IMG/VR virus record: IMGVR_UViG_3300035670_000099
Span: 1-64,000 of that record
From: a virus
Strand: one strand, 5' to 3'
Length of the DNA: 64,000 bases
In this document: piece after piece, positions 1,480 through 50,310 of the stretch
How positions within the stretch are numbered: position 1 is the stretch's first letter
How the letters are laid out: each line of letters begins with the position of its first letter
The notes under the pieces: generated by a model
What the model saw: the letters and a program-made list of their open reading frames with translations, nothing else
What the model was told of the DNA's origin: nothing
The model's database searches: none
Position numbers and translations under genes: made by a program

Positions 1480-1507
1480 TGCTTTCGTCTCCGTTCACTA
1501 CTCTTTT

Positions 1508-3286: not shown

Positions 3287-3317
3287 CTTCCTACTCCTGA
3301 ACTTTGTTTACTCCTTT

Positions 3318-3364
3318 AATATAAACTACCTTTTATTTTATTGTCAAGGGGTTTAGAAAAATTT
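3318..3364 (-). promoter_or_regulatory. Early promoter cassette B
   Basis: TTGACA-N18-TATATT, nearly identical to cassette A. Confidence 0.8.
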
Positions 3365-3996: not shown

Positions 3997-4030
3997 AATT
4001 CCCTCTCTTGTCTAAAATATTTATTCTTTC

Positions 4031-4078
4031 AAGATAAACTACTTTTTATTAATTGTCAAGCACTTTAGAAAAATTTTT
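4031..4078 (-). promoter_or_regulatory. Early promoter cassette C
   Basis: TTGACA-N17-TATCTT with the conserved AAAAGTAGTT spacer. Confidence 0.75.
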
Positions 4079-7090: not shown

Positions 7091-7116
7091 AATATCTCCT
7101 TAATTACTCGTTATTC

Positions 7117-7165
7117 AATATAAACTACTTTTATTTTAATGTCAAGTGTTTTCTGAAAAATATTT
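7117..7165 (-). promoter_or_regulatory. Early promoter cassette D
   Basis: TTGACA-N17-TATATT with the conserved AAAATAAAAGTAGTT spacer. Confidence 0.8.
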
Positions 7166-10175: not shown

Positions 10176-10321
10176 GTTAATCAGTGTAATTTTAGTTTCT
10201 ACAATAAATTAAACATTTGTTTTGTGTCAATATGTTATATAAAATAAAATTTATTTTACAATCTACCAATAGAGACATTACTTGGTTTACAGTAAAATAG
10301 TTGTTGCATGAAAAAATCAAA

Positions 10322-13300
10322 ATGTCAGAAGATTTTGGTGCGTTAACTGGCAATCCAGTGTTCTTTAGAACATATAGCAGATTAACAGGACACGGAAGAG
10401 AGTCATGGGAGGAGATGTGCAAACGTTCCGTTGACGGATTAGCAAAGCTGGGGAAATTTACCCCAGAAGAAATAGAACTAGTCGCCAGAATGCAGAAAAG
10501 CATAAAAGCATTGCCATCTGGAAGATGGCTATGGGTAGGCGGCACAGAGTGGCTGGATAAGCCACAGAATTACAGTGGAGCATACAATTGTACGTCCACA
10601 AATTTAACCAACTGGGATGCTTTTGCATTCATGATGGATTTAGCCATGATGGGATGTGGCACAGGCGCTGTAATTGAGCCTAAATATTATCAGCAATTAC
10701 CTACCATCAAAAATAGAATAGACATTGAGATTATTGACAAAATAGGCGAAACCCCACCATCTGAAAGGCTGGACGAGACAGTAACTGTCTTGACAGAAGA
10801 CAGTTTTACGATAAAAGTCGGAGACAGCAGACAAGGATGGGTGGAAGCATACAAGCAATTACTCCAAGTAGCTTCTGATGACACCTTTAATGGAGTTGTG
10901 GTAGTCAAAGTGTCATTAGCCAATGTACGCCCCGCTGGGGAGAAATTAAAACAATTTGGTGGTGTTGCCAATCCAGTGAAATTAGAGAATTTGTTTTATA
11001 GATGTGCAAACATCTTAAACAAAGCACATGGTAGAAAACTAACGTCACTGGAATGCTGCTTGCTGATTGATGAAGCAGCAAGCACTATAGTGGCTGGGAA
11101 CATTAGACGCTCAGCGGGCATGCGCCAGTTCACTTCTAGTGATAACGTAGCTGCTAACGCTAAAGCAAATCTATGGGAGCAAACACCAACTGGAGAATGG
11201 AGAATAGATCCAGAGAAAGATGCTTTGCGCATGGCAAATCACACCAGAGTTTTTCACCAAAAGCCTACTTATGAGGAGGTGTTTGATTCAGTAACGAGTC
11301 AATATTGGAGTGGTGAAGGAGCAATACAGTGGGCGGGTGAAGCTGTCGCCAGAGCAAATGCAGATTTATTGATTACCCAAAAGCTAAAAGCAAAGTTTTT
11401 GACTGCTTACGAGAATGGTGAAGCTAAGCAATGGATAAGAAAGCATTATCCAGACATGCCACATGCGGAGATAGAACATAGAGTAAGTACATATGGATTA
11501 AATCCATGTGTTACTGCTGATACATGGATTCACACAGAAAAAGGAGCGAGGCAAGTTAAAGACTTGATAGGCAAACAAACAAGTGTTTACGTTGATGGAG
11601 AATTATTTAGCACCACACCTGAAGGTTTTTGGCTAACAGGAATCAAGCCTGTGCTAAAAGTAATTACTCAAGAAGGATATGAGTTGCGTTTAACTGACAA
11701 TCATCAGCTACTCAAAGTTACTGCTCAGACTCAGCATAAACAATATTCTGAGTGGACTGAAGCTAAAGATTTAAGTCCAGGACATTATATTTTAGTCCAC
11801 AACCATCGTGAAGCACAGCATTGGGACAGTTTTGGAACTTTTGACGAAGGCTGGTTAATTGGCAATTTAATTGGCAATGGCAGCATCTCATCAACGCAAT
11901 GGGGAAAAACAGCACTTTTACGATACTGGGAAGATTCTCAAGATGAGATGGGAAGACATGCTGTTGCTCTACTTAAAAAAACTGTTGATTATGCCGGAAC
12001 TACAGAATCTGGACATTACTATAAACAGCAGAATTATCGAGTAGTTCAATCAACAGGATTAGCTAGATTAGCTGCTAATTATGACGTTACGTTGGATAAT
12101 AAAATGCCAACAGGTAAAATTGAAGAAGCAAGTTATGAGTTTTACCGTGGTTTTTTACGTGGCTTATTTGATGCTGATGGCAGCGTGCAAGGGAATCAAC
12201 AAAAAGGCATTAGCATCAGATTGTCACAAAGCAATCTAGAGACTTTGAAAATAGTCCAAAGAATGCTGGCGAGATTAGGTATTATCTCAACAATTTATCA
12301 AAAAGCACAACATGAACTTGTTATCAGCAATGATAATGTCTGCGTCTTCCAAGACATTATTGGATTTCAAAAACCTGACAAAGTAAATCGCTTAAATGAA
12401 TTAATTACCAGATATGAGCCAAAATTAAATCGTGAGCGATTTGTAGTTAAAATCAAAGAGATTATACCCGATGGAGTAGAAGCAGTTTTTGACTGTACTG
12501 TTCCGGGAGTTTCTCGATTTGATGGTAATGGAATTGTCACCCATAATTGTGGTGAGATTATTGGTAGTAATTTCCACTGTGTTAGTGGTGACACGCTGCT
12601 AATTACCAAAGATGGATTACACGCAATCAAAGATGTTGTAGGATGCGATGTTGAAATTTGGAATGGTAGGAATTGGAGTCAAGTACAGCCATTCAAAACT
12701 GGCAGTTCTCGCGTTCTTTATCGTGTACGATTTGCGGATGGTACGTATTTAGATGCTACCGAATATCATAGATTCTTTGTTAAGGATAGGTTTGGCAAAG
12801 AATACAAAGAAGTACAGACAAAAGACTTAATGGATGCAAGCAAGTATCGTATTCACACCAAGCCATTTACTATTCAATATGATGATGGATTGGATATTGA
12901 TACTAATTATGCTTATAGCTTGGGAGTAGCCGTAGGAGATGGCACCACAGACAAAGACAACAACGCAAAAATAAGATTGTATGGCAAAAAAATTGCTTTG
13001 TCTGTGGCAGGCAATAAGTCTCCCATCAGGGAATATGAATACGTTACAAACTTCACTGATGTTACAAATTTAAGCTTTTCTGGGGAATTTCTGAAGAGTC
13101 TTAAAACCAAACCAGAAGCATTAAACATCATAGCAAGTTGGAATCGTGAAGCAATTTTGCATTTTATTGCTGGTTTAGCAGATACAGATGGAACAAATAG
13201 TAGCGGCAATGGTATTAGAATCTACATCTCTGATTATGACAGAGCGTATAGAATACAATTGTTGCTAATTAAGTGTGGTATTCGTTCTTCTGTCAATCTT

Positions 13301-15730
13301 TGCGCTTACAAAGGAGCAGTTACAAATTATGGTGTTAGAAGTAAAGATTTGTACTCTGTACAAGTAACTGATTGTGGTAAAATCCCTTGTCAGCGATTAG
13401 ACGTAAGCCAAGGTAGAGTACCTAAATGTAAAGGCAAATGGCAAGTTATCAGGAGTGTGGAGCAATTACCGGGATTGCATGACACTTACTGTTTTAATGA
13501 ACCACAATATCATGAAGGTGTATTTGGAAACACGTTGACTGGAAATTGCAATTTGTCAGAGATACACTTAAATCAGCTCAATCCTACTGACTACAAAGAA
13601 CAAGAAGATGCTTTTAAAGCAGCTTCACTCTCAGTAGCTGCATTGCTTCACCATAGATTCACCGAGCCTATTTATCAAGAATCTAGAGAGTTAGATCCTA
13701 TTGTTGGTGTTTCCTTCACCGGATTATTTGACTTTTTTGTTCATGCTTTTGGAGCAGAATGGCTTCACTGGTGGCAACAAGAGAGAGAAGACAATGAGCA
13801 AGGCAGGATATTTAAACAAAAAGAACAGGAGTATTTATCTAGATGGAAAGACATAGTGCATCAAACTGTTTGGGAATATTGTGATAAACACAATCTTAAA
13901 CGTCCTAATCGTTGTACTACTGTCCAGCCCAGTGGGTGTCTAGATCGCACTGCATTAAGAATTTTTGATCAGGGATTACTTTATGCGGATGAATTGATAG
14001 CACCTGGCAGCGGTGAAGCTACTAATTTGAAACTAAGTGTTCGTGAAGGAGTGTCTGTCACCACTGGAATTGCTAATCAACCATTGCAGTTAATTAAAGT
14101 CAATCTGAACAATGGACGTGTTTTACGTATGACTCCAAACCATCGTCTTTCTATTGATGGAAACTGGATTTATGCGTCTGACATGGCTCCTGGAATGAAG
14201 ATTGATTTTAGTCTTGGAGAATATCAAAACAGCCAAGAGACTTCACTACTTGATATAGATCAATTTAGCTATACAAGAGAAGCAAAACAATTAGAGTCTG
14301 GGCATAATCGTGGTGGCATCACAGCAACTATCATTAAAACGCCCAAGATAATGTCTCCTGACTTAGCTTATTTTATTGGAGCATTATTTGGAAATGGATG
14401 TTTAAGTGCAACTGGACATCGTATTAGGTTTTCTAGTAATAGTTATAAATTGCTAGAAAGACTACAACAAATAGCACAAAATCTGTTTGTTTTAAATGGG
14501 AGAATCAACAAATACTCTGGCAGAGAAGCTTATGAATTAAGCATTTCTAGTGTTCAGCTTTATGATTGGTTGCAATTGAATGGAATAGCTAAAACAGAGA
14601 AAAGTCTAAATCTTGACAGAATACCATTAGCTATTCGTTGTTCCTCCAAGCAAAGTATTCTATCGTTCTTTTGTGGATTGATTGACACTGATGGATGCAT
14701 TAGAGTTAATGGCTCAATGTCCATTGACAGCGCTAGTGAAGAGTTCATTAGAAACCTTCAACAAATAGGTGAAGCTGTAGGATTGTGCTTCTCCATATTC
14801 CATAACACTGAAGGGGAGAACAACCAAGCACAGAAAAATATGTGGGGTTTATGTTTAAGCCGCATGTTATCTAAACCTGATGCTTTAGATTATCTAAACG
14901 AAAATAGTCAAAAAGCTGAGATTCGTCCTATTCCTTCACTCAAGAGAAGTTATAAATTTGATCCATATCTCATTGAATCTGTGGTGTGGGAAGAAACTCC
15001 TGATTACAGCTACGACTTTGCGGTGCAAGGAGAGGACGACAATGATTCATGGTATTGGCAAGGAGCGATTAAATCACACAACACAAAGTCTTTGCTAACT
15101 GGCGCTTCTCCTGGTTGGCATCCTCCCAAAGCACAACAATTTATCCGTCGGATTACTTTCCGTAAGAACGATCCAGTAGCATTGGCATGCATAGACTTTG
15201 GGTATAACGTAGTTCCATCACAATCAGATAAAGATGAAAATGGTAACTTATTAGACAATCCTTTTGATGAACGTTGCACAGAATGGTTAGTAGAAATACC
15301 AGTAGCAGTATCTTGGGCAAATCTACCAGGAGTTGATGTTGATATTTCTAAATTCTCGGTGTTGGCACAGTTTGATTTTTATATGCAAGTGCAGAAGTAT
15401 TACACAACTCATAATACTTCAGCCACACTTGAACTACGCCAGAACGAAATTGGTGCTTTAAGTAGAGCTATATATGACTCAATCAAGAACAATGACGGGT
15501 ATATTTCTGCTGCTATCCTTAGTCGCTTTGATGATTTCCAGTCTTATCCTAGATTGCCTTTTGAGCCTATTAGCAAGGACAAATACTTGCAGTTGGTAGA
15601 AGAAGTAAATCAAAGAAGAACTAATGATTCTTTCTTAGATGCTTTGCATAAGTATGATAATGGGTTTGATGAACAATCAGGCCCTGCCCCATGTGATTCA
15701 GACAAGTGTCTTTTACCAGAGTCAAAGTGA
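10322..15730 (+). CDS. nrdJ: Class II (AdoCbl-dependent) ribonucleotide reductase containing three inteins
   Basis: VFFRTYSR, PSGRWLW, AYNCT, GNIRRSA, NP|CGEI, |CNLSE, TTVQPSG|TKSLL and C-terminal CDSDKC. Mature protein is about 750 aa. Confidence 0.95.
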   Translation: MSEDFGALTGNPVFFRTYSRLTGHGRESWEEMCKRSVDGLAKLGKFTPEEIELVARMQKSIKALPSGRWLWVGGTEWLDKPQNYSGAYNCTSTNLTNWDAFAFMMDLAMMGCGTGAVIEPKYYQQLPTIKNRIDIEIIDKIGETPPSERLDETVTVLTEDSFTIKVGDSRQGWVEAYKQLLQVASDDTFNGVVVVKVSLANVRPAGEKLKQFGGVANPVKLENLFYRCANILNKAHGRKLTSLECCLLIDEAASTIVAGNIRRSAGMRQFTSSDNVAANAKANLWEQTPTGEWRIDPEKDALRMANHTRVFHQKPTYEEVFDSVTSQYWSGEGAIQWAGEAVARANADLLITQKLKAKFLTAYENGEAKQWIRKHYPDMPHAEIEHRVSTYGLNPCVTADTWIHTEKGARQVKDLIGKQTSVYVDGELFSTTPEGFWLTGIKPVLKVITQEGYELRLTDNHQLLKVTAQTQHKQYSEWTEAKDLSPGHYILVHNHREAQHWDSFGTFDEGWLIGNLIGNGSISSTQWGKTALLRYWEDSQDEMGRHAVALLKKTVDYAGTTESGHYYKQQNYRVVQSTGLARLAANYDVTLDNKMPTGKIEEASYEFYRGFLRGLFDADGSVQGNQQKGISIRLSQSNLETLKIVQRMLARLGIISTIYQKAQHELVISNDNVCVFQDIIGFQKPDKVNRLNELITRYEPKLNRERFVVKIKEIIPDGVEAVFDCTVPGVSRFDGNGIVTHNCGEIIGSNFHCVSGDTLLITKDGLHAIKDVVGCDVEIWNGRNWSQVQPFKTGSSRVLYRVRFADGTYLDATEYHRFFVKDRFGKEYKEVQTKDLMDASKYRIHTKPFTIQYDDGLDIDTNYAYSLGVAVGDGTTDKDNNAKIRLYGKKIALSVAGNKSPIREYEYVTNFTDVTNLSFSGEFLKSLKTKPEALNIIASWNREAILHFIAGLADTDGTNSSGNGIRIYISDYDRAYRIQLLLIKCGIRSSVNLCAYKGAVTNYGVRSKDLYSVQVTDCGKIPCQRLDVSQGRVPKCKGKWQVIRSVEQLPGLHDTYCFNEPQYHEGVFGNTLTGNCNLSEIHLNQLNPTDYKEQEDAFKAASLSVAALLHHRFTEPIYQESRELDPIVGVSFTGLFDFFVHAFGAEWLHWWQQEREDNEQGRIFKQKEQEYLSRWKDIVHQTVWEYCDKHNLKRPNRCTTVQPSGCLDRTALRIFDQGLLYADELIAPGSGEATNLKLSVREGVSVTTGIANQPLQLIKVNLNNGRVLRMTPNHRLSIDGNWIYASDMAPGMKIDFSLGEYQNSQETSLLDIDQFSYTREAKQLESGHNRGGITATIIKTPKIMSPDLAYFIGALFGNGCLSATGHRIRFSSNSYKLLERLQQIAQNLFVLNGRINKYSGREAYELSISSVQLYDWLQLNGIAKTEKSLNLDRIPLAIRCSSKQSILSFFCGLIDTDGCIRVNGSMSIDSASEEFIRNLQQIGEAVGLCFSIFHNTEGENNQAQKNMWGLCLSRMLSKPDALDYLNENSQKAEIRPIPSLKRSYKFDPYLIESVVWEETPDYSYDFAVQGEDDNDSWYWQGAIKSHNTKSLLTGASPGWHPPKAQQFIRRITFRKNDPVALACIDFGYNVVPSQSDKDENGNLLDNPFDERCTEWLVEIPVAVSWANLPGVDVDISKFSVLAQFDFYMQVQKYYTTHNTSATLELRQNEIGALSRAIYDSIKNNDGYISAAILSRFDDFQSYPRLPFEPISKDKYLQLVEEVNQRRTNDSFLDALHKYDNGFDEQSGPAPCDSDKCLLPESK
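11507..12547 (+). mobile_element. Intein 1 (347 aa) with LAGLIDADG homing endonuclease
   Basis: Starts CVTADTW, ends IVTHN, +1 Cys; contains LIGNLIGNG and FLRGLFDADG. Confidence 0.93.
12578..13546 (+). mobile_element. Intein 2 (323 aa) with LAGLIDADG homing endonuclease
   Basis: Starts CVSGDTL, ends TLTGN, +1 Cys; contains LGVAVGDG and FIAGLADTDG. Confidence 0.92.
13937..15082 (+). mobile_element. Intein 3 (382 aa) with LAGLIDADG homing endonuclease
   Basis: Starts CLDRTAL, ends IKSHN, +1 Thr; TPNH block B; contains IGALFGNG and FFCGLIDTDG. Confidence 0.92.
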
Positions 15731-31136: not shown

Positions 31137-33434
31137 TTAATATGCAGCTCCAACGCCTTCAAATAAGTAAGTAAAGGCAGCAATATTTCTGTATTCAACA
31201 CCATTTGCATCACTATGAGTCACAATAACTGTTTGTTCCAAGGTATTAGTATATGTATTTGTTGTTATCGCTTCGGTAGTTGTTGAAGGAAACTCATAAT
31301 TAAACACTGCTGTTTGGCTGCTGCCGGCACCAATATCATTATTAACGCTTCCTTTTAACACTGTAACAGATTGATTATTGGATGATTTATCTACAACAAT
31401 CGAAGGTGTTGCATTACTAAGGGGAAGAGTTACAGCATTAACTCTTACAGTATCTCCTATAGATATATTATTAAAAACTGCGCTATTTGCGGATAAAGTA
31501 AAGTAACTTCCCCCTGCTCCAGCGGCATAAGTGTTGTCTGCTGCTATTGTTAATCCAGAAATAGACGATTGATTTTTAACTGCATTTAGATTAAATGTGA
31601 TGGTTAAAGTGCCATTATTAACACTTGTCCAAACAGATAAAGGACTTCCTATTCTTCTTAATTCAGGAGAGCTGCTACTTCCAGTCCATCCAGATAGAGT
31701 TATATCACCACCTACAGTATTAACTATACTTGTGTATCTTGATTGTTTTTTAAAACAGATAAGAGCATTTGCTATAAAATAATTTGTCCAATTTGTTTGT
31801 GATGCTTCTGGTATTCCTTTTAATGTTATTCTGCATTGTGTGGTAGTAGGAAAAGTTAATTCACTGTTAACAAGTGCGCTACCAGCAAAATTTACAGCAT
31901 TTCCAAGTCCTAAAGGAGTGCTTCCACCGTTGAAGCTAAAACCAAAATTAGCTTGATAAGGTAAAGTTACCAAACCACCTAATTTTGTATGATTCCAGTT
32001 AGAATATAACTTTATTGCAGACACTTGCGCTATTGCTAATTCACCATATTCTGATGTTAGATAATTTACTCCACTAGGATAACTATAATACAATCCATGA
32101 GTTATGTTTGTTCTACTTGGATTGAACAGTTCTCTAAATCCAGTAAAGACAATGCCAGTATTGTTTGTTCCAGTATATTTACTAAAATAAAGATATCTAA
32201 GTTTTCGCATTGCGCTAACTTTAAATGCATAAAGACTAAGCGACAAATCAGAATATAATTCCTCAAGATTTATGCATTTATGTAAATTATTTACTATTGA
32301 ATTAACATCGAAAGAACCTTCTATAATCAAAGATTTTAGACTTTGTAAAGGTAGTGGTGCTATACCAATTCCTGGGCCGAATCTAGACTGAGTAGGACTA
32401 TTTGAACTCCTTAATTGTAGTTCTTCCAACTTACTTAAATTTGTTCTTAATGTTGTATTATTTGCTCTAAATCTAGTCAAACTAGTTTCTGTACCTGTCA
32501 TTTGACAGATAATTTTTAATCCTCTTATTTCAGTAAAATTATTAAATTTTAGTTTAACAACAATAGGAACTTGAGCGCCTATAACTTTGTCATTAGGTGT
32601 TGTTTTGTAACTATTATCAAGTTGATCAATAACTCTATTTGATTCATCCGGAAACTCTATTGTAAATGAGGCGTTTTGCTGTAATTTAACATCAAGTCTT
32701 GTCAATGTGCTTGCTATTGCTGGATTAATTTGTTCAGGAGTGTAATAATAATTTTGTGAACTATTTGTTAATCCATTGCATAAAATCCAAATTTCTTTAT
32801 TATCCCAGTCTGGAACAGTCACATTAAATCCAGAGCCTCCTTCTAATCCAAGATTAATGATTGAATTGCCTTCGTATCCACAAGCAGCTACTACATATAA
32901 ATGTGCATCTGTGTAAGATATTGTTTTCTTGGCTAATTGAGTAGTATCGGCATAATAGGTTACTTGATCTCCTTTCACTACGATAGATAAATTATTTATT
33001 CCAGGCTTAGGGAGAACTTGAGTTAATGTATTTTCGTGAACAATCCATAAGCTATCGTTATTTGTCATTGGACTATGGATAAAACCATAAGCAACAGATC
33101 TAGCAATTGTGTTGATATGTGTTGCGTATAAAGGTGGTATTCCAACTGTAAATCCACAAATAGCACTTAATGGATTGCTAGCTGTATTGTTTTGAAATCC
33201 AAACTCAAGTCTGCCATCATACGTGGCTTTGGCAAGACGTAAATTTAGCATTTTCCACTCAGCAGAGCTGACAAAAGGATTATTGTATCCGCTTCTACTG
33301 CTATTTCCGTAAAATAATGTCCATATGGTGCCATCGACTCCGCCAATAGCATTATTTTGATCAGGAATTTGTGTATGTTTATAAACAAATTGTCCGTTTG
33401 TATTTGTGTTTCTAGTTAAACTATTTGTAGCCAT
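31137..33434 (-). CDS. Virion appendage / tail-fibre-like protein, paralog B
   Basis: 765 aa, S/T/N-rich, LRR-like middle; tandem duplicate of 33531-35855. Confidence 0.7.
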   Translation of the reverse strand: MATNSLTRNTNTNGQFVYKHTQIPDQNNAIGGVDGTIWTLFYGNSSRSGYNNPFVSSAEWKMLNLRLAKATYDGRLEFGFQNNTASNPLSAICGFTVGIPPLYATHINTIARSVAYGFIHSPMTNNDSLWIVHENTLTQVLPKPGINNLSIVVKGDQVTYYADTTQLAKKTISYTDAHLYVVAACGYEGNSIINLGLEGGSGFNVTVPDWDNKEIWILCNGLTNSSQNYYYTPEQINPAIASTLTRLDVKLQQNASFTIEFPDESNRVIDQLDNSYKTTPNDKVIGAQVPIVVKLKFNNFTEIRGLKIICQMTGTETSLTRFRANNTTLRTNLSKLEELQLRSSNSPTQSRFGPGIGIAPLPLQSLKSLIIEGSFDVNSIVNNLHKCINLEELYSDLSLSLYAFKVSAMRKLRYLYFSKYTGTNNTGIVFTGFRELFNPSRTNITHGLYYSYPSGVNYLTSEYGELAIAQVSAIKLYSNWNHTKLGGLVTLPYQANFGFSFNGGSTPLGLGNAVNFAGSALVNSELTFPTTTQCRITLKGIPEASQTNWTNYFIANALICFKKQSRYTSIVNTVGGDITLSGWTGSSSSPELRRIGSPLSVWTSVNNGTLTITFNLNAVKNQSSISGLTIAADNTYAAGAGGSYFTLSANSAVFNNISIGDTVRVNAVTLPLSNATPSIVVDKSSNNQSVTVLKGSVNNDIGAGSSQTAVFNYEFPSTTTEAITTNTYTNTLEQTVIVTHSDANGVEYRNIAAFTYLFEGVGAAY

Positions 33435-33530
33435 TGATTTTGTCCTGTATTTTTAGAATTGTTTTGCAGTTTAACAATATTGCTTTTAAGTAAAAAAATA
33501 GAAGTAACTAAAACATTATAAAACATTTGG

Positions 33531-35855
33531 TTAATATCCTCCCCCAACGCCTTCGAACATGTAAGCAAAGGCAGCAGCCATATTTATGTAACTGCCTCCT
33601 GAAGGATTCCAAGTTACAATAACTGTCTCATCTATATTATTGGTATATGTCAATGTATCTGTTATTGCTTCGGTGGTTGCTGAAGGAAATTCATAATTAA
33701 ACACTGCTGTTTGGTTGTTGCCGGCACCAATATCATTATCAACGCTTCCTTTTAACACTGTAACAGTCTGATTATTGGAGGATTTATCTACAACAATCGA
33801 AGGTGTTGCATTGCTAAGGGGAAGAGTTACAGCATTAACTCTTACAGTATCTCCTATAGATATATTATTAAAAACTGCGCTATTTGCGGATAAACTAAAG
33901 TAACTAACTCCTGTTATGCCAGCATTATAAGCATTATCTGTTGTTATGTTTAAACCAGAAATAGATGATTGGTTTTTGATTGGCTTTAGATTGAATGTAA
34001 TATCTAAATTGCTATTAGCAATGTTCCAAGCGTATGAAGTATTGCCTACCCTTCTTAGTTCATGATTAGTGCTAGTATCTTTCCATCCAGACAAAGTCAC
34101 ACCATTGACTATTTGATCATATCTAGGCTGCTTTTTAAAACAAATCAAGACATTTTCCGTAAAAAACCACACCCAACTTGCTACTGATGTTTGCTCTATT
34201 CCTTTTAATGTTATTTTGCATTGTGTGCCACTGTTAATAAAGCTTAATTCGCCATTAACTAATTGCCTTCCAGCATAATTTGGATTATTTCCAAGCCCCA
34301 AAGGATTGGCTCCACCATTAAAAATAAATCCAAAATTAAGCATTCCAATAAATGTTGTGTAGTTAGGAGTTGCAGTATTATTAAAGCCTAGTTTTGTGTG
34401 ATTCCAGCCATATAATTTTATTGCAGAAACTTGTGCTGTTGCTAATTCAGCATATTCTGGGACTAAAATATTTTCACCACCACTAGGATAAGTATAATAC
34501 AATCCATGAGTTATATTTATATTGCTTGTTCTATTTGGATTAAACAATTCTCTAAATCCAGAAAAAGTAATACCAGTTGTGCCTAATCCAGTGAATTTAC
34601 TAAAATAAAGATATCTAAGTTTTCGCATTGCACTGATTTTAAATGCATAAAGACTAAGAGATAAATCAGAATATAATTCCTCAAGATTTACACATTTATG
34701 CAAATTATTTACTATCGAATTAACATCAAAAGAACCTTCTATAATCAAAGATTTTAGATTCTGTAAAGGCAATGGTGCTATACCAATTCCTGGTGCAAAT
34801 CTAGACTGAGTAGGACTAGCTGAGCTTCTTAATTGTAATTCTTCTAAATTGTTTAAGTTTGCTCTTAATGTTGTATTATCTGTTCTAAATCTAGTCAAAC
34901 TAGTTTCTGTGCCTGTCATTTGACAGATAATTTTTAATCCTTTTATATCAGAAAAATTATTAAATTTTAGTTTAACAACAACAGGGATTTGAGCATTTAT
35001 TGTCTTGTTATTGGGTGTTGTTTTGTAATTATTATCGGATTGAGTAATAGCGGTAGTTGATTCATCCGGAAACTCCATTGTAAATGAGGCATTTTGTTGC
35101 AACTTAACATCAAGTCTTGTTAATGTGCTTGCTGCTATTGGGTTAGTTGTCTCATGAGGAGTATTGTAATAATTCTGAGAACTATTTGTTAATCCGTTAC
35201 ACAAAATCCAAATTTCTTCATTATCCCAATCCGGAAGACTTGCATCAAATCCGCTACCATTTTCTAAGCCAACATTTACGATTGAATTTCCTGCATATCC
35301 GCATGCGCCTACTACATATAAATGCGCATCTGTATAAGTTATTGTTCTTGTACTTAATTCAGTATCTCCTGTTTTGTAGGTTACTTGATTCCCTTCTATT
35401 GTGATAGACAAATTATCTATTCCGTAAGTGCCAGACAATTGGCTTATAGTGTTTTCATGTACAATCCATAACGAGCCGTCGTCTGCCATGGGATTGCGGA
35501 TAAAGCCATAGGCAACAGATCTAGCAATTGTATTGATATGTGTTGCGTATAAGGGAGGTATTCCAGCTGTAAATCCACAAATAGCACTTAATGGATTGCT
35601 GCTGTTGTTGCTAAAGCCAAACTCTAGTTTGCCGTTATACGGAGATTTAGTAAGACGTAAATTTAGCATCCTCCACTCAGCGGAACTGACAAAAGGATTA
35701 TTATATCCACTTCTACTGCTATTTCCGTAAAACAATGTCCATATACTGCCGTCTTGTCCATAAACAGAATTATTCTGATCAGGAATTTGTGTGTGTCTAT
35801 AAACAAATTGTCCGTTAACGTTTCCGCTAGTTCTAGTTAAGCTATTTGTAGCCAT
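33531..35855 (-). CDS. Virion appendage / tail-fibre-like protein, paralog A
   Basis: 774 aa; long blocks identical to 31137-33434. Confidence 0.7.
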   Translation of the reverse strand: MATNSLTRTSGNVNGQFVYRHTQIPDQNNSVYGQDGSIWTLFYGNSSRSGYNNPFVSSAEWRMLNLRLTKSPYNGKLEFGFSNNSSNPLSAICGFTAGIPPLYATHINTIARSVAYGFIRNPMADDGSLWIVHENTISQLSGTYGIDNLSITIEGNQVTYKTGDTELSTRTITYTDAHLYVVGACGYAGNSIVNVGLENGSGFDASLPDWDNEEIWILCNGLTNSSQNYYNTPHETTNPIAASTLTRLDVKLQQNASFTMEFPDESTTAITQSDNNYKTTPNNKTINAQIPVVVKLKFNNFSDIKGLKIICQMTGTETSLTRFRTDNTTLRANLNNLEELQLRSSASPTQSRFAPGIGIAPLPLQNLKSLIIEGSFDVNSIVNNLHKCVNLEELYSDLSLSLYAFKISAMRKLRYLYFSKFTGLGTTGITFSGFRELFNPNRTSNINITHGLYYTYPSGGENILVPEYAELATAQVSAIKLYGWNHTKLGFNNTATPNYTTFIGMLNFGFIFNGGANPLGLGNNPNYAGRQLVNGELSFINSGTQCKITLKGIEQTSVASWVWFFTENVLICFKKQPRYDQIVNGVTLSGWKDTSTNHELRRVGNTSYAWNIANSNLDITFNLKPIKNQSSISGLNITTDNAYNAGITGVSYFSLSANSAVFNNISIGDTVRVNAVTLPLSNATPSIVVDKSSNNQTVTVLKGSVDNDIGAGNNQTAVFNYEFPSATTEAITDTLTYTNNIDETVIVTWNPSGGSYINMAAAFAYMFEGVGGGY

Positions 35856-40455: not shown

Positions 40456-41579
40456 TGTAAATCACTCCAACTATCTGTAAATGTACAATTCCCTTCCATA
40501 ACTCTAACAGTGTCTCCGTTATTCAATCTAACTAATATTTCATATCCATATTCTCCATCCATATCGTAAAATTCAGCGCTGTTTACGTATAATTCTAAAC
40601 TAATTGTGTTGAATGGTATTACTCCAACCATGAATTTGGAATAAGGAGGGATGATAACATTACCTTCGGGTGCCAAAAGTTTTACTGTTGGTGTGGTTAA
40701 TGCAGTAGGAGGGATTCCTACAAAATTTTCCTTGAAAGCTACTGCTCCTACATATTTCCATTCTTTATCAACATTAGAATAAGATTGAACATACAATCTT
40801 GTATTTGCAGTCATTGCGGGTAAACCTAAATACCAGCCTTGGATGCTTACATCTACTCCTGTTGTATTAGTTGAGTCAATCGCTATATCCGCACTTCCGT
40901 TATTTAAGTAACCAACAGTATTTGTAACATAACAGTTGTAGCCATTAAGAGTGCCAGCGACAACTGTTTCTCTAATTTCAATACTTGTTTGTCCAGCATT
41001 TACAGTGTTTGCTACTGTAACTCCTGTTACTAATGTACCACTTGTAAAAGCAAGTATACTGCCAGCGGGGATTTGTTGAGTTACGCCTGTTACAGTTAAC
41101 GCATTTTGTGTGTTGCTAGTTATATTTACGGTAAAATTGCTTGCTATGTTAGCATGAAACGCAGCCACTGATGCAGAACGATTGAATATTCTAGCTTCAC
41201 TAACTGTTTTAGTTGCATTAGAACTTAAAACAAGAGTAGAGTCAGTGACAGCATCTACTTTAGCAATTGCAACAGCGCCTTCAACAATTACTTTATCCCC
41301 AACTCTAACAGGCAGTAAAGACAATATTTTACTTTTGTCAGCTGTAGCAGGATATGCTTTAATTTGTACATTTGGGGTGTTAATTGTAGTAGATGCAGTA
41401 AATCGTTTAACTAAACTAAATCCCGGAGATTTACGTCGAACTTCTCCAAATACCAAAGCATTTGCAAAGTTCATGCCATAACTACCTGTTACAGTTAAAT
41501 TAAATCTAGCTGTCTCACCTTTTTTAAGTAATAAATCTAATTTTTGTGTATTAAACTGAGGTTTAAATGGTTCAGTCAT
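40452..41579 (-). CDS. Structural (baseplate/tail appendage) protein
   Basis: DLLLKKGET.RF N-terminus and YEIL...GDT.RVMEG C-terminus, beta-rich. Confidence 0.6.
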   Translation of the reverse strand: MTEPFKPQFNTQKLDLLLKKGETARFNLTVTGSYGMNFANALVFGEVRRKSPGFSLVKRFTASTTINTPNVQIKAYPATADKSKILSLLPVRVGDKVIVEGAVAIAKVDAVTDSTLVLSSNATKTVSEARIFNRSASVAAFHANIASNFTVNITSNTQNALTVTGVTQQIPAGSILAFTSGTLVTGVTVANTVNAGQTSIEIRETVVAGTLNGYNCYVTNTVGYLNNGSADIAIDSTNTTGVDVSIQGWYLGLPAMTANTRLYVQSYSNVDKEWKYVGAVAFKENFVGIPPTALTTPTVKLLAPEGNVIIPPYSKFMVGVIPFNTISLELYVNSAEFYDMDGEYGYEILVRLNNGDTVRVMEGNCTFTDSWSDLQ

Positions 41580-41778
41580 AATCTAATTCCAATAAATAAG
41601 ACGGACTAATTTCCAATACTTTAGCTATCTTTTTAATTAAGCAAGCACGTTTAATTCCATTACTTTCCGCCCTAACGAGAGTCATGCGGCTAACTCCAAT
41701 ACAATTTGCTAGTTGTTGGCAACTAAAACCTTTCTCAATTCTACATTTTTTTAAATAGCTTCCCTGCCTTTTGGACAT
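41572..41778 (-). CDS. XRE/Cro-family HTH regulator
   Basis: LKKCRIEKGFSCQQLANCIGVSRMTLVRAE...KIAKVLEISPSYL. Confidence 0.85.
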   Translation of the reverse strand: MSKRQGSYLKKCRIEKGFSCQQLANCIGVSRMTLVRAESNGIKRACLIKKIAKVLEISPSYLLELDYD

Positions 41779-41840
41779 AATTTAATACCATAAAAGATAC
41801 AGCTACAATAATTATTGCCATTATAATTAGCGAGAATAGT

Positions 41841-41869
41841 TTAAGCTAAAAACAAGTGTTTTAGCTTAA
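41841..41869. promoter_or_regulatory. 11-bp perfect inverted repeat directly upstream of the capsid ATG
   Basis: TTAAGCTAAAA-acaagtg-TTTTAGCTTAA. Confidence 0.6.
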
Positions 41870-41873
41870 TTGT

Positions 41874-43622
41874 ATGTCACGGAAATTTATAAAAGAATTA
41901 TCAGAACAGCAAGTCATAGATTCAATTAATCAAGCAAAAAGAGAAAAAATGTCAGACAAACCAAAAGGATTTGCTATTGCCAACTCCGTCAAGATTCAAG
42001 ACAGCGTATCAGTAGAATCTACTACAGATGTTTCAGCTCCTGCACCTACTCCTGCTCCTGAGCATGATGCGCCGAAGCCTTTATCTTTGGACGATGTTGA
42101 ACGTGTTTTATCTGTTCATTTAGATAAAATGCAATCTTCTTTAGAAGCGGAAAAACAAGCTAAAGCAGAATTGGAAGCTGCTTTACAAAAAGAACGTGCT
42201 GAAAAGGACGCTCTTAAATCTCAATTAGATACAGCGAGATTAGCTGAAAAAGTATTAAATGATATTGGTAGAATGCAAGGAAAAACTGAAAGCGTTTTTG
42301 TTCCTAATGTTAATAGAGTAATAACATCTAAAGCAGATGCGCCACAAGGTGCTTTAAAAGATTGGTTTAACATTTTTGATGACTGCTCCAAAGTCATCAA
42401 AGTACGCGCCAATGGCTCTCAGTATGTTACTCAAGACAACAGGCAGTTGAATCAATTTGTTAAAGAAAACAAAGCAGCTGTTATTAAAGACTTAGAGTCT
42501 TGGGCAAAAGCCAATGGTATGTTGCGTGGTTCTTCTACCATTTCCAAAGATGCTGCAACAGTTGGTGGAGACATCCAAGGCGGCTTTTTGTCTGTTTTGT
42601 CATCAATTATGCGTACTAACAATCGTCAAGGATTTATCTTTTGGCAATTTGCTAATACTGTAATTGATTTTGGCAAAGGATTGGGGGACAACATTAAGAT
42701 TCCTAGAGCGGCTTATTTACCCGCTCCTAACGCTCCTGAAGACAGATTATTGTCAAGTGCTGGTGCGTATACTCGTATTGACTCTGGTAATCAAAATTTG
42801 TCCACTGGAGTTGTAACAGCTCAGTTAAGTGAATGGGGTTTAGGACGTAATTCCCAATATCCTCCTGTTACTTTAGTTAGCTTTGTGACTGCCTATTCAA
42901 TGATTGAACTATTGTCAATTTTGAATAGAAACTTAATGCGAGATTACTACGCATGGGAAGATTTGCAGATTAGAAGCTTGTGGACTGGCACAACTCGTGT
43001 TGTTTATAATGACAAGAACGCTGTTACTACTTCTATTGGTGATGTTGCTACTGCTGGAGATGATGGAACTTTATCTCGCAAATTCTTAGCGTCTCTGTAT
43101 GGTTACATGAAAGAACTACAGATTCCTCCATTTGCTGGTAACAAGTATGGCTTGGTAGTTAACAGCACAGCTTTAACTCAATTGAAGATTAGCTATGACA
43201 CTTTGTGGCATGCTGCTACTCCTAGTGAATTGCAAGCTTTGACAGAGTTCTTGAATCCTGTTCTAATCTCTCCTGGCGAGACAGATAAACTAACTGGATA
43301 TTGTGGAGATTTTGAGAACTTCATGATTTTCGAGACTAATGCTTATGGTGTTGGTGGTAGCGGCGCTCCTGGTGTTCAAACAGAAAGCAGCAAAGTCACT
43401 CACACTAGCTTTGCTTTTGGTGCTGACACAATCGGACGTGGCATCGGCACTGAAATGGAAGTTCGCTTTGATGATGACACTGATTTTGGACGTGCTACTA
43501 GAACTATCTGGCGCTCTGAAGAAGGATTTGTCCAGATGGATGTTGATGGTGCAGGAGACAGTAGTGCTGTTCCACAACAACTTAGAGTTATCAAAGTTAA
43601 CACACTCAAAACTGCAATTTAA
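41874..43622 (+). CDS. Major capsid protein with N-terminal scaffold-like coiled coil
   Basis: Coiled coil (LEAEKQAKAELEAALQKERAEK), FWQFA...GKGLGDNIKIPR and HK97-like C-terminal pattern; followed by neck genes. Confidence 0.75.
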   Translation: MSRKFIKELSEQQVIDSINQAKREKMSDKPKGFAIANSVKIQDSVSVESTTDVSAPAPTPAPEHDAPKPLSLDDVERVLSVHLDKMQSSLEAEKQAKAELEAALQKERAEKDALKSQLDTARLAEKVLNDIGRMQGKTESVFVPNVNRVITSKADAPQGALKDWFNIFDDCSKVIKVRANGSQYVTQDNRQLNQFVKENKAAVIKDLESWAKANGMLRGSSTISKDAATVGGDIQGGFLSVLSSIMRTNNRQGFIFWQFANTVIDFGKGLGDNIKIPRAAYLPAPNAPEDRLLSSAGAYTRIDSGNQNLSTGVVTAQLSEWGLGRNSQYPPVTLVSFVTAYSMIELLSILNRNLMRDYYAWEDLQIRSLWTGTTRVVYNDKNAVTTSIGDVATAGDDGTLSRKFLASLYGYMKELQIPPFAGNKYGLVVNSTALTQLKISYDTLWHAATPSELQALTEFLNPVLISPGETDKLTGYCGDFENFMIFETNAYGVGGSGAPGVQTESSKVTHTSFAFGADTIGRGIGTEMEVRFDDDTDFGRATRTIWRSEEGFVQMDVDGAGDSSAVPQQLRVIKVNTLKTAI

Positions 43623-45578: not shown

Positions 45579-45722
45579 ATTCGATAAGCAATAGGCAAAT
45601 TCTATGGTATTTGATTATGATTATCCCGAACGGGATAAAAAAGACAAACAGTAAGCTCTAACTTACTAACTTGCAATAGCTACACCACAACACAAATGGG
45701 GCCTCCGCAAGGAGGTTTTTTT
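45579..45722 (+). ncRNA. Candidate small RNA (~145 nt) or 16-codon peptide mRNA
   Basis: Bounded by a consensus promoter and the terminator gcctcc-GCAA-ggaggt-T tract; two further hairpins. Confidence 0.5.
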
Positions 45723-45725
45723 ATT

Positions 45726-45944
45726 ATGTCAAACGTAGATCACCCACAGCATTACACAACAAGTTCAGTTGAATGCATTGATGCAATTGCAGCAGCTTTA
45801 TCTCCGGAAGAGCTAAGAGGATTCATCAAAGGCAATGTCATCAAATACTTATGGAGAAGCGAACACAAGAATGGTAATGAAGATTTACAGAAAGCTTTAT
45901 GGTACTTAAATTGGTATGTCAATAAAATCAAAAATCCATCATAG
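45726..45944 (+). CDS. DUF3310 (SaV-like / putative nucleotide kinase) protein
   Basis: VDHPQHY...ECIDAI...GFIKGNVIKYLWR..HKNG.EDLQKALWYL. Confidence 0.88.
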   Translation: MSNVDHPQHYTTSSVECIDAIAAALSPEELRGFIKGNVIKYLWRSEHKNGNEDLQKALWYLNWYVNKIKNPS

Positions 45945-46884
45945 AGTTTTTGTGTAATTTTCCATTTACCACCTTATATTGCTTTAGCCAGTTATAGGCA
46001 GTAGATTGGCAAACACCTAAATAGAGTTTACACCATGCGAATGATTTGCCATTAGAAAGTGCGTTTAAGACTGTTATTTTGACATTGTCATCGTAAGAAG
46101 GCCTGCCAATTTGTAATGGATTTTCAACAAACTGACTTTGGCAACTTTTGCATAAATATTGCTGCCTATTTCCTCTTTTCCCGTTCTTGACAACATTTTT
46201 GCTTAAACAGCTAGGACAAACAACAATATCGTTGACTACATTTTTAAGTAGTTCTATACCTTCAGATTCTAGTTGTTTAATTTGGTATACTGACAAATTT
46301 AATAATGACTTAATATCTTGTATTTTATAATCTTCAATATAAATTAATCTAAGTATTTGTGCGTGCTTGCTTGGAATTTTAGCTAGTATTATCTCTAATT
46401 CATCGATAGTAGAGTTATCAAAGTAACTGATTTCAGGAAGTTCTATGTGAATTTTATCATGAGCTATCGCAGCTTCTTTGGCGGTTAATTCTGAAATAGT
46501 CAAGTCCCTAGCTGATTGTTCATAAGTAATACCTTTCTTTTTAGCATTACGCATTATTTTCTGATAAATGTCTTGGATGTTCCTAGGGATTTTAACTAAT
46601 CTGTCTTTGTCCCGCAGGAACATTAACATATATCCATTTATGAAAGGAACAGCAAAGCTGGACAGCTTTTTAGATTTCTCAGGATTATATCTTTCAATAG
46701 CTTGGATTAATCCTAGACACCCAATTTGTACTAAATCCTCTAATGGAACAGAGCAAGACTTCTGGACTTTTTGAGCAACAGAGTAGACAAGTCCTAAATT
46801 TTTTTCTACAATCTTATTTCTTATTTTTATGTCTTTACTCTCGTAGTATTTGATTAGCAGCTGTTGGTTAACATCAAAATTCAT
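45928..46884 (-). CDS. Group-3 (SigF/SigB/FliA-like) sigma factor fused to an IS1 InsA-like Zn-ribbon/HTH domain
   Basis: Region 2 RNKIVEKNLGLV...EDLVQIGCLGLIQAIERY.P...LSSFAVP.I.G..L.FLRD...VKIPR; C-terminal CPSC...KNG...QQYLCKSC..QF...GV.QSTAYNW. Confidence 0.88.
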   Translation of the reverse strand: MNFDVNQQLLIKYYESKDIKIRNKIVEKNLGLVYSVAQKVQKSCSVPLEDLVQIGCLGLIQAIERYNPEKSKKLSSFAVPFINGYMLMFLRDKDRLVKIPRNIQDIYQKIMRNAKKKGITYEQSARDLTISELTAKEAAIAHDKIHIELPEISYFDNSTIDELEIILAKIPSKHAQILRLIYIEDYKIQDIKSLLNLSVYQIKQLESEGIELLKNVVNDIVVCPSCLSKNVVKNGKRGNRQQYLCKSCQSQFVENPLQIGRPSYDDNVKITVLNALSNGKSFAWCKLYLGVCQSTAYNWLKQYKVVNGKLHKNSMMDF

Positions 46885-46958
46885 CACATTAACACAAATG
46901 TTACATATTTATGTTACTTTAAAAATGGCAACTTTATAGGTAAACTATTCAGGAAACT

Positions 46959-47737: not shown

Positions 47738-47775
47738 TCTTGGCAACTATTAAGAAAGAAATATAGGGGATTTAT

Positions 47776-48756
47776 ATGCCTTTAGCAACTAGTTCTTTAA
47801 TATTACAGAATACAAGCTTAGATTTGATTTTATTACCACTTGATGCAAATTATGGTGTACCTAGTCGTACAGTTTCTTTTGCTACTTTAGCGTTGCAAGC
47901 AAACGAAAATATTGGAGATACCTCTATTAGTGTTTTATCAAGCACTACAGATACTCCTGTTTTTTTGCGCCAAGGAACTTCTTTATCATTTAGTGGTAGT
48001 ACTGCCGCTCCATTTAGGAGGCAAGTAATTGTCAATGAAGACAAAGTTGTTGGGACATCAGCTACTACTTTAAGTGTGACTCCTTTGTTGCGTCCTCTCG
48101 TTTCTGGAAGCGATCCAATAGGAATAGCAATTGTTCCTTTTGTGTCTAATCACGCTAATTTAGTGATTGAGTGTAATACGAGTAATGGTTCGCCAACTAT
48201 TACTACTACTAACTCTTTTGCCGACGTTGAAGTTGGTGATTTTGTTACTGGCGCTGGAGGCACTGGAATACCAGCCAATGCGTATGTTGTGTCAAAAGCA
48301 AGTAATACGTCTTTAACTATTAGCGCAAATGTTACTGCTGATGGCACCGGCGTAAATTTAACTTTTATTTCTCGTATTACTCCAACACCATTAACTGGTA
48401 TCCAAACGCTTGATTTAAATAATCAAGAAACTCAAGTTGATACTACTCACTTTGCCTCTGGCGCTGGAACTGAAGCTGCAATTGTTAGATTTAATAGAAG
48501 TTACTCAGCATCTGGCATTGCGTTAATTGGTGATGAAGCGCTAGAAAGAATTGTAAAAAGAGTAGCTGGTTTTGATAATGCTTTCTTAGGCAGAGAAGTA
48601 TATGCTGTTTCAACCACTTCGGATGGTGAATCTATCCATGGTGTTGCAAAAATTATGGCATTAAACTTGCCTGCCAACCAAAACGAAGTTAAGAAATACT
48701 CTTTTACTCTTATGTATCAAGGCAATGCTGCTTGGGTACAACCTTACTCTTATTAG
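47776..48756 (+). CDS. Tail tube protein, paralog 1
   Basis: GIQTLDLNNQETQVDTTHF...G.AKI......NQNEVKKYSFTL tube-like motifs. Confidence 0.7.
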   Translation: MPLATSSLILQNTSLDLILLPLDANYGVPSRTVSFATLALQANENIGDTSISVLSSTTDTPVFLRQGTSLSFSGSTAAPFRRQVIVNEDKVVGTSATTLSVTPLLRPLVSGSDPIGIAIVPFVSNHANLVIECNTSNGSPTITTTNSFADVEVGDFVTGAGGTGIPANAYVVSKASNTSLTISANVTADGTGVNLTFISRITPTPLTGIQTLDLNNQETQVDTTHFASGAGTEAAIVRFNRSYSASGIALIGDEALERIVKRVAGFDNAFLGREVYAVSTTSDGESIHGVAKIMALNLPANQNEVKKYSFTLMYQGNAAWVQPYSY

Positions 48757-48767
48757 GAGAATGAATC

Positions 48768-49553
48768 ATGCCTTTAGCTACCGCGTCTCAGATTTTACAG
48801 TCTTTTTCTCTCGAGATGATGCTTTTGCCATTAGATACTTTTGGTGCTGCCAATAGATCTTCTACTGGGTATCCTTCTGCAACTATTACCACAACTGGTG
48901 CTGCTGTAGGCGCTACTTCTTTAAGCATAAGTGCTAGTTCTAGTATTGGCTCTTCAACAAGCTTTGCTATTAATGCTGGAACAGCTTTATCTTTTGCCCC
49001 TGCTAGTAATATAAAGTCTAGACAACAAGTTGTAGTAACTCAAGATGTTCAAAGTCTTACAACTTCATCTACGTCAGTTTCTATTTCTCCATTACTTCGC
49101 CCAATAGCAGCCTCATCAACTGCTACTTTAATTTATCAAACAGACGCTAATATTAGTGCTGGCGCTACAAAGCTATTGCCATTAAGTGGTATTCAAACAA
49201 TGGACTTGAACAATCAAGAAACTCAAGTTGATACTACTCACTTTGGCTCTGGCGCTGGCACTGAAGCTGCAATTGTTAGATTCAATAGAAGTTATTCTGT
49301 ATCTGGAATTGCATTAATTGGTGATGAATGTTTAGAAACTGTTGTTAAAAGAGCAGCTGGTTTTGATAACGCTAGACTTGGCAGAGAAGTGTATGCAATT
49401 ACAACAATGCCTGATGGAGAAAGAATTGCTGGTGTTGCAAAAATCATGGCATTGAACTTGCCTGCCAACCAAAACGAAGTTAAGAAATACTCTTTCACAT
49501 TGATGTATCAAGGTTCTATTTACGAATGGACTGCTCCTTACTCTAATTTTTAG
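48768..49553 (+). CDS. Tail tube protein, paralog 2
   Basis: C-terminal half nearly identical to paralog 1; AGGAG SD. Confidence 0.7.
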   Translation: MPLATASQILQSFSLEMMLLPLDTFGAANRSSTGYPSATITTTGAAVGATSLSISASSSIGSSTSFAINAGTALSFAPASNIKSRQQVVVTQDVQSLTTSSTSVSISPLLRPIAASSTATLIYQTDANISAGATKLLPLSGIQTMDLNNQETQVDTTHFGSGAGTEAAIVRFNRSYSVSGIALIGDECLETVVKRAAGFDNARLGREVYAITTMPDGERIAGVAKIMALNLPANQNEVKKYSFTLMYQGSIYEWTAPYSNF

Positions 49554-49581
49554 TATGGCTTACTAAAAGCTAGGGGGATAA

Positions 49582-50310
49582 ATGGCTTCTACTTCGCAAC
49601 CACTAAGAAGTTGCTGCTTAGAAATATTGCTGCTTGACGTTAATTCTGATGGCAGCACTATTACTGATTTGTTTAAGACAGAAATAGAAGTAGTAGAGAC
49701 GGCAAACATCTCTGCTACTTCTGTTAAACTGCGCAGTTATACTGATGTATTCTTACCTGCTGGCACTTCTCTATCTTTTGTTAATCCAGACGCTGACGGC
49801 ATAAATACATACAGAAAGCAAATTATATTAACAGAAGACACAACGATAGAAGAATTTACTACAACTGTTAAAATCTATCCTTTACCTTATTCTTTGCGGC
49901 AGGGTGACATAGCAGAAGCCATAGAAGGAATTTTGCCATTATTTGGATTGCAAACAATTGATTTATCTTCCCAAGAAACTCAAGTAGAAACAACAAATTT
50001 TCGCTCTGGAAAAGGCGTAAATAATGCTTTTGTAAGATTAGCTAAAACATGTAATGTCACTGGCATAGCATTGGCAGGAGATAGAGCATTAGAAACTATA
50101 GTAAAACCAGTTGGTATTTTCTCTAGTGAACTATTTGGCAGGGATGTATATGTAGCTGTTACAATGCCAAATGGCGAGCGATTTGAAGGTATAGCTAAAA
50201 TAGGATCTATGGCATTACCAGCTAATCAAAATGATGTCCAAAAATTCAGCTTTACTTTACTATTCCAAGGTGAAGATTTTGTTTGGCATCCTCCCTTCAT
50301 TTTTAGTTAA
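49582..50310 (+). CDS. Tail tube protein, paralog 3
   Basis: GLQTIDLSSQETQVETTNF...PANQNDVQKFSFTL; more diverged. Confidence 0.7.
   Translation: MASTSQPLRSCCLEILLLDVNSDGSTITDLFKTEIEVVETANISATSVKLRSYTDVFLPAGTSLSFVNPDADGINTYRKQIILTEDTTIEEFTTTVKIYPLPYSLRQGDIAEAIEGILPLFGLQTIDLSSQETQVETTNFRSGKGVNNAFVRLAKTCNVTGIALAGDRALETIVKPVGIFSSELFGRDVYVAVTMPNGERFEGIAKIGSMALPANQNDVQKFSFTLLFQGEDFVWHPPFIFS

Follow-up and report, generated by a model that had tools for sequence, protein, structure and literature searches.

Sequence analysis of the genome of a freshwater cyanobacterial virus revealed a sigma factor that continues, in the same reading frame, into an InsA-type zinc ribbon and helix-turn-helix (HTH) of the kind found in IS1 transposases. 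The gene lies in a 64,000-nucleotide window (the whole stretch of DNA analysed), which is the initial 64 kb of the 93.6-kb IMG/VR virus record IMGVR_UViG_3300035670_000099; the record is estimated to be 90% complete and is referred to below as G000. The frame encodes 319 amino acids (aa) from a GTG at 46887, or 318 aa from an alternative ATG at 46884, and is not interrupted. The 318-aa form is identical to a protein in a public collection (P0001), and the same open frame was found in six independent IMG/VR contigs at 99-100% identity. The initial annotation of this DNA had claimed one uninterrupted open reading frame (ORF) joining a sigma factor to an InsA-type ribbon and an HTH. Both the frame and the architecture were borne out, with the Pfam families Sigma70_r2, Sigma70_r4 and Zn_ribbon_InsA all scoring above their cut-offs and a group-3-like sigma part. 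The motifs quoted for it, CPSC...YLCKSC and STAYNWLKQ, are present in the protein.

Regions 2 and 4 of the sigma part were recognised directly by Pfam (Table 1). Region 3 was seen as three helices in the AlphaFold model, the Pfam scan of the fusion protein giving no Sigma70_r3 match. Region 4 had been described as degenerate, but its match runs over the full Pfam model and is ordinary; since it lies above the cut-off, the idea that the added module compensates for a weak region 4 found no support. Sigma70_r4 also scored above the cut-off in the homologs P0002, P0003, P0004, P0023 and P0024, and below it in P0025 (19.8 bits) and P0027 (21.0 bits). Among the NCBIfam models, the sigma70-ECF superfamily TIGR02937 exceeded its cut-off (90.7 against 42.9 bits). 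The best NCBIfam match, cyanobacterial SigF PRK07408, remained below its own (139.8 against 261), as did the SigB/F/G family TIGR02980 (106.6 against 234), and PHROGs assigned the protein to the phage sigma family phrog_351. Judged by these profiles, the fusion protein resembles a group 3 sigma factor but is no member of the curated SigB, SigF or SigG subfamilies. Region 4 is separated by a linker of 3 residues from the zinc ribbon, which has the spacing CPxC-x18-CxxC. Zn_ribbon_InsA (PF03811) matched residues 222-250 with 26.5 bits in the whole protein and 29.1 bits in the module alone (residues 216-319), against a cut-off of 26.1. The matches of HTH_23 and HTH_28 at residues 271-305 were weak and below the Pfam cut-off in the window protein, and HTH_28 passed it in the homolog P0003 (25.6 versus 25 bits).

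The AlphaFold model, built on a 49-row alignment, had a mean predicted local distance difference test (pLDDT) score of 84 for the full protein, and of 86 for the module modelled alone. The sigma-2 helices extended to about residue 100 and were followed by sigma-3 (102-146), a disordered linker (151-158) and sigma-4 (161-218). An unbroken helix from residue 200 to 218 led into the ribbon at residue 222. The ribbon consisted of three β-strands (232-254; pLDDT 82-90), and a short low-confidence linker (257-264) connected it to a three-helix HTH (267-303), whose helices at 267-278, 283-290 and 294-303 were predicted at pLDDT 85-92. A fold search with the whole model returned SigB first, and also SigA and SigS chains of holoenzyme structures. 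With the module alone, the fold search yielded only generic zinc ribbons and HTHs and nothing in the PDB at E <= 0.001, and a sequence search of the PDB found no InsA-type domain structure.

Outside the sigma clade, the module was closest to InsA-like proteins and to the N-termini of IS1 transposases. An exhaustive search with residues 216-319 over 1.8 billion representatives recovered 420 proteins at E <= 0.001. Zn_ribbon_InsA was present in 112 of the 148 top matches scanned, and in P0102 the module and DDE_Tnp_IS1 occurred together in one protein. Many matches of 90-130 aa, aligning with the module from end to end, resemble the N-termini of cyanobacterial IS1-family transposases, with which the module aligns over its full length (alignment A4). 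The four Cys residues were invariant across 42 aligned relatives. On this evidence the module belongs to the family of InsA/IS1 DNA-binding domains, and from that membership it is predicted to bind DNA. It shares with IS1 InsA and the IS1 N-termini a C4 ribbon (CPxC ... CxxC), a short linker and a three-helix HTH within about 90 residues. In contrast to IS1, it stands at the C-terminus of a sigma factor and has no frameshift partner. Its identity to the IS1 N-termini is only about 30%, and a family-specific GKSxxWC replaces the GMGFRxIxR of IS1 in the helix preceding the recognition helix. The genome likewise encodes no InsB or DDE protein, as the initial annotation had stated for the flanking frames; DDE_Tnp_IS1 (PF03400) gave no match at E <= 1 across the 93.6 kb, whereas control genomes do match. 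Because the catalytic domain is absent, the locus fails as an IS1 insertion sequence (IS). The initial annotation saw no IS ends, and no inverted repeats were met while reading the flanks, where no dedicated inverted-repeat search was made and the repeat search covered direct repeats only. At the orthologous locus of phages with an unfused sigma factor there is no element-sized insertion, the difference being a 3' extension of the gene.

The same module was also found on other proteins, all metagenomic: TetR regulators carrying it at the C-terminus (P0080) or the N-terminus (P0040), GntR-FCD regulators (P0117, P0147) and a pentapeptide-repeat protein (P0034). Part of these fusions recur on several contigs. 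The InsA-type zinc ribbon with its HTH may be a recurrent add-on DNA-binding domain.

A homolog search, proposed in the initial annotation as a check, returned full-length fused proteins at identities of 64% (P0002, P0003), 60% (P0175), 45% (P0173), 44% (P0024) and 41% (P0004, P0025). At 90% identity the fused proteins formed eight clusters. They were of two forms, a short one of 311-334 aa, to which the window protein belongs, and a long one of 369-389 aa with an extra conserved helical tail. Every fused member kept the four Cys residues, KNGKR, the NP..GR.G linker, GKSxxWC and the recognition helix [ST]TA[YHF]xW. Across the eight clusters, at 41-65% identity, the linkers from sigma-4 to the ribbon and from the ribbon to the HTH contained zero indels, which suggests a fixed geometry of the module relative to region 4. 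In a codon-level comparison of the window gene with a 64% relative, non-synonymous divergence (pN) was 0.22 in the sigma part and 0.24 in the module, with a saturated synonymous divergence (pS) of 0.77; against a 41% relative, pN was 0.41 in both parts. Differences within the module of near-identical pairs comprised 2-3 synonymous and 0-1 non-synonymous changes. The equal pN implies that the module is as constrained as the sigma domains, and the codon-level comparison shows a retained part of the protein under purifying selection. Neutral evolution of the InsA part, which had been raised as an outcome that would speak against a domesticated module, is not what these values indicate.

These data also bear on whether the extra part has a function at all. 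It might merely reflect a sigma gene that runs by chance into a degrading IS1 copy, or a chimeric assembly, and the sigma factor of the closest cultured relatives does end before the module. However, the frame is open in the six independent contigs, and relatives at 41-65% identity retain the fusion, with the Cys residues and linker lengths unchanged. Furthermore, non-synonymous divergence in the module equals that of the sigma part, the genome lacks a DDE domain, and the unfused forms are nested inside the fused ones. Metagenomes of lakes and fresh water from 12 studies contained about 0.70 of the words sampled from the 6.5 kb between 41500 and 48000, so the phage is widespread and the gene is no assembly chimera. 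We therefore regard a functionless extension as highly improbable; within the limits of sequence evidence, the module is no read-through into an IS remnant.

The tree made from the sigma part alone placed the phage sigma factors in one clade apart from cellular SigF (support 100/99), on a long separate branch. Cyanobacterial SigF proteins are the best cellular relatives, with about 30% identity and regions 2, 3 and 4 in common; they differ from the phage clade in the absence of the extra module and in the sigma-3.2 linker, which is some 20 residues shorter in the phage proteins. The orthologous sigma factors of the Cylindrospermopsis phage Cr-LKS4 (gp25, OQ625504.1) and of C. raciborskii virus RM-2018a are 46% identical to the window protein over residues 2-218. 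Their genes have the same position and orientation between virion genes and encode the same shortened 3.2 linker. Unlike the window protein, Cr-LKS4 gp25 has 225 aa and ends directly after region 4. Six unfused sigma factors, from Cr-LKS4 and RM-2018a-like contigs, formed one group, which was sister to the short fused forms (98/95) and nested within the fused forms overall. The approximately unbiased (AU) test rejected monophyly of the fused proteins (p 0.014). The nesting and the rejected monophyly indicate that the Cr-LKS4 lineage lost the module, and that the fusion is no recent accident. Homologs stopping before the CPSC motif had been named as a finding that would count against the fusion; such homologs do exist in Cr-LKS4 and its relatives, but their position within the fused clade points to loss. 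The fused modules were mutual best matches (E 5e-32 to 1e-21), with the next architectures at E 1e-12 or worse among the 1.8 billion representatives, which argues for one acquisition. The simplest history is that the fusion arose once, long ago, that the Cr-LKS4 lineage lost the module once, and that the short forms shed the extra tail.

The attachment point of the module offers a possible mechanism. In holoenzyme structures, region 4 lies on the -35 element with its C-terminal end toward the upstream DNA. Given this orientation and the invariant three-residue junction to the ribbon, the module would be positioned upstream of -35, on duplex DNA at roughly -40 to -60. There it could act as a built-in activator or reader of an UP element, giving the enzyme more affinity and sequence specificity at phage promoters, and would add a third recognition element in the manner of a tethered class II activator. 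IS1 InsA binds the terminal inverted repeat that overlaps the IS1 promoter and is natively a repressor. Tethering to a sigma factor might turn such a promoter-occupying protein into a promoter-recruiting one. We consider the chances about even that the module, as a sigma-tethered DNA-binding domain, reads DNA just upstream of the -35 position. The fuller proposal is more tentative, and we hold it to be possible rather than probable: sigma factor and activator would be united in one polypeptide, the module, captured once from an IS1-type element, would read a fixed box beside -35, and the promoters of this clade would be three-part.

A separate DNA binder beside region 4 that redirects the holoenzyme to phage promoters is familiar from sigma appropriation by T4 (AsiA and MotA) and from class II activators. 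In T4, the DNA binder acts on the host sigma-70 as a protein of its own, whereas the binder proposed here is a covalent part of a phage sigma factor. The likeness is one of functional analogy, with no homology. The fusion gene is the only sigma-70 family gene in the 93.6-kb genome, and no RNA polymerase was found among the eight large ORFs scanned, so the phage sigma factor has to work with the cyanobacterial RNA polymerase core of the host.

The module may have its site in the TGGCAAC-type boxes that precede virion genes. Such a TGGCAA(C/T) box, a candidate promoter element of the phage sigma factor, lay 33-45 nt ahead of the start codon in several virion genes. In G000, 7 boxes lay near starts versus 2.1 expected by position; the corresponding values were 5 versus 1.9 in the fused-type relative G002 (64%) and 3 versus 1.07 in the first 50 kb of Cr-LKS4, all for a motif that was picked post hoc and with weak statistics. 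TGGCAA occurs 104 times in the 93.6 kb, and TTGCCAT, tried as a module site, was too common to carry meaning alone. The box ahead of the capsid gene is, as its reverse complement TTGCCA, also the -35-like hexamer of that gene (TTGCCA-N16-TAGTTT), and the block ATTATTGCCAT was conserved in G002. A conserved-looking stem-loop, AGCTAAAAACAAGTGTTTTAGCT (41838-41862), directly follows this promoter-like site in the capsid gene leader. One of the boxes outside the window precedes a single open frame of 6235 aa (G000:C1:69489-88196, minus strand).

The sigma gene and the neck gene diverge from a shared element. The box of the neck gene (46926-46931, plus strand) occupies the six base pairs that, on the other strand, form the TTGCCA hexamer of the fusion gene, so that one bound protein could affect both genes. 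InsA natively represses when bound at the IS1 end overlapping its own promoter. Both points would fit a module that steers the sigma factor, or the free protein, to phage sites for other ends, such as autorepression, marking phage versus host DNA, or acting as a repressor off the core enzyme. This support is circumstantial, however: TGGCAA is frequent, and also marks the tail-tube promoter regions of phages without the module. We consider such a role rather unlikely.

In 45 upstream regions, k-mer enrichment detected only sigma-70-type early promoters (CTTGACA-N17-TAGTTTAT and the TATTGACA class) and a weak ATAGATTG signal, which failed to hold up. A six-member family of strong sigma-70-type early promoters, TTTTTCTAAAC..CTTGACA-N17-TAGTTTAT, was recognised, each copy 31-40 nt upstream of a small gene. 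The CTTGACA-N17-TAGTTTAT and TATTGACA promoters are plain sigma-70-type. The repeat search of the genome gave no operator-like family, and no conserved element farther upstream emerged when eight TGGCAA-box regions of the two fused-type genomes were aligned.

Several observations weigh against a promoter-reading module. K-mer enrichment, the repeat search and the alignment of candidate promoters of the two fused-type genomes yielded no upstream element specific to fused phages. The box upstream of the first tail-tube gene occurs in fused and unfused phages (L002/L013/L014); if real, it more probably belongs with the sigma part common to both than with the module. The inter-domain arrangement of the AlphaFold model has low confidence, with a predicted template modelling score (pTM) of 0.43. 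No separate copy of the module was present in the complete 101-kb genome of Cr-LKS4, whose lineage lacks it, so the module is dispensable in at least one genomic background. The absence of a DNA target from the searches and the single loss without replacement would be expected if the module were instead a regulatory or protein-binding extension, which folds onto sigma-2 and sigma-4, or whose ribbon binds RNA polymerase or a host or phage partner, and so times the activity of the sigma factor, as happens in the extracytoplasmic function (ECF) groups ECF41, ECF42 and ECF44. The C-terminal sigma extensions studied so far are regulatory (ECF41, PMC3426412; review, PMC8103513). In addition, zinc ribbons often bind RNA polymerase, and ribbons of the TFIIB/RPB9 type were among the weak fold matches of the module. 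On the other hand, the module keeps the full InsA-type DNA-binding layout with a strongly conserved recognition helix, [ST]TA[YHF]xW, and its relatives are DNA-binding domains of transposases and add-ons of DNA-binding regulators. The Pfam matches carry no zf-HC2/ZAS anti-sigma signature, and a ZAS-type anti-sigma zinc motif was rejected for lack of a Pfam match. A regulatory extension thus appears to us an improbable reading, and promoter recognition by the tethered module remains the one we prefer.

The fusion gene sits on the opposite strand within a block of virion genes that is syntenic with Cr-LKS4 (Table 1). Downstream of it the initial annotation had placed an ORF on the other strand. 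This is the convergent 82-aa ORF, which was described there as DUF3310-type and matched phrog_236 (called nucleotide kinase) in the PHROGs scan. In G002, a 319-aa tail-fibre-like gene is located between the neck and sigma genes on the sigma strand (45909-46868; L010 4952-5911), and its translation reads as repeat motifs with a putative C-terminal chaperone-like domain. Three tandem tail-tube-like genes (47776-50310) have a conserved core in common. Two tandem paralogs of about 770 aa (31137-35855) share DNA blocks of 75-94% identity. Together, these two sets of paralogs account for repeat families D3-D6 and D12. Contigs of two freshwater metatranscriptome libraries from different studies matched 42096-43369 at 95-100% identity, covering parts of the capsid gene only and nothing of the sigma gene. 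This hints at active infections in nature, although DNA carry-over could also account for it. Elsewhere in the window, an 1809-aa ORF (10301-15730, plus strand) encodes a class II (B12-dependent) ribonucleotide reductase, seemingly interrupted by two intein/homing-endonuclease insertions (LAGLIDADG_3 and Intein_splicing at residues 441-749; Hom_end near 1453-1537). In the early region, ORFs of 15-nt periodic repeats (5-921 and 5982-6362, minus strand; D1, D2, D8, D14) were read as putative pentapeptide-repeat proteins.

Table 1. Positions of the fusion gene, its predicted domains, candidate promoter elements and neighbouring genes (window numbering unless marked G000)
Feature	Position	Strand	Basis or remark
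Sigma-InsA-like fusion gene	45928..46887, stop included	-	ORF list and sequence
Sigma region 2 (residues 26-96)	46600..46812	-	Pfam Sigma70_r2, 62.5 bits (cut-off 24); same coordinates by genome search
Sigma region 3, three helices (residues ~102-146)	46450..46584	-	AlphaFold helices 102-118, 122-128, 133-146
Sigma region 4 (residues 168-215)	46243..46386	-	Pfam Sigma70_r4, 28.7 bits (cut-off 24.1), model positions 2-49 of 50
InsA-type zinc ribbon (residues 222-254; Cys 224, 227, 246, 249)	46126..46224	-	Pfam Zn_ribbon_InsA, AlphaFold
Three-helix HTH of module (residues 267-303; recognition helix STAYNWLKQY)	45979..46089	-	Weak Pfam HTH_23/HTH_28, AlphaFold helices
Putative sigma-70-type promoter of fusion gene	46902..46931	-	TTGCCA (46926-46931), 18-nt spacer, TATGTA (46902-46907); consensus resemblance only
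TGGCAA box, candidate promoter element	46926..46931	+	33 nt upstream of neck-gene ATG (46959); weak statistics
TGGCAA box	47741..47746	+	35 nt upstream of first tail-tube gene (47776)
TGGCAA box	41815..41820	-	42 nt upstream of small ORF 41572..41778 (-)
Further TGGCAA(C/T) boxes, outside window	G000 69481-69486, 88225-88230		
Early promoter copies in window	1499-1550, 3310-3361, 4022-4073, 7108-7159	-	
Early promoter copies outside window	near G000 91278-91305, 93530-93558		
Capsid gene	41874-43622		
Neck-like genes	first starts (ATG) 46959	+	
Tail-tube paralogs	first starts 47776	+	
82-aa ORF	45696..45944	+	Convergent with sigma gene, overlapping its last 17 nt

In kind, sigma factors extended at the C-terminus are already known, as are domesticated DNA-binding domains of transposases. 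A conserved extra domain fused after region 4 is also found in ECF41 (SnoaL-like), ECF42 (TPR) and ECF44 (Cys-rich). However, these are group-4 sigma factors whose extensions are regulatory or sensory and are not known as DNA-binding domains (PMC3426412, PMC8103513), while the phage sigma factor is group-3-like and carries a module of the transposase DNA-binding type. The initial annotation knew of no description of such a fusion, and full-text literature searches likewise found no sigma factor fused to InsA or to a transposase-type DNA-binding domain, nor did a jumbo-phage survey that covers phage sigma factors and zinc ribbons mention one. Public records name the family members sigma factors, and fragments of them "transposase-like protein". 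One member filed under a Minisyncoccia metagenome-assembled genome is probably a mis-binned phage contig.

Sigma factors are not known to read promoters by parts other than regions 2, 3 and 4, and added specificity normally comes from separate activators. A phage sigma factor that has long retained a transposase DNA-binding module would represent a new route to promoter specificity, and a clear case in bacterial viruses where the core transcription machinery has domesticated a DNA-binding domain of a transposase. That TetR and GntR regulators carry the module too is a hint that DNA-binding proteins use InsA-type domains as reusable extra parts. If the proposed mechanism is true, this would be the first sigma factor known with an extra sequence-specific DNA-binding domain of transposase origin, and could serve as a natural template for orthogonal sigma factors of extended specificity and for gene-expression tools.

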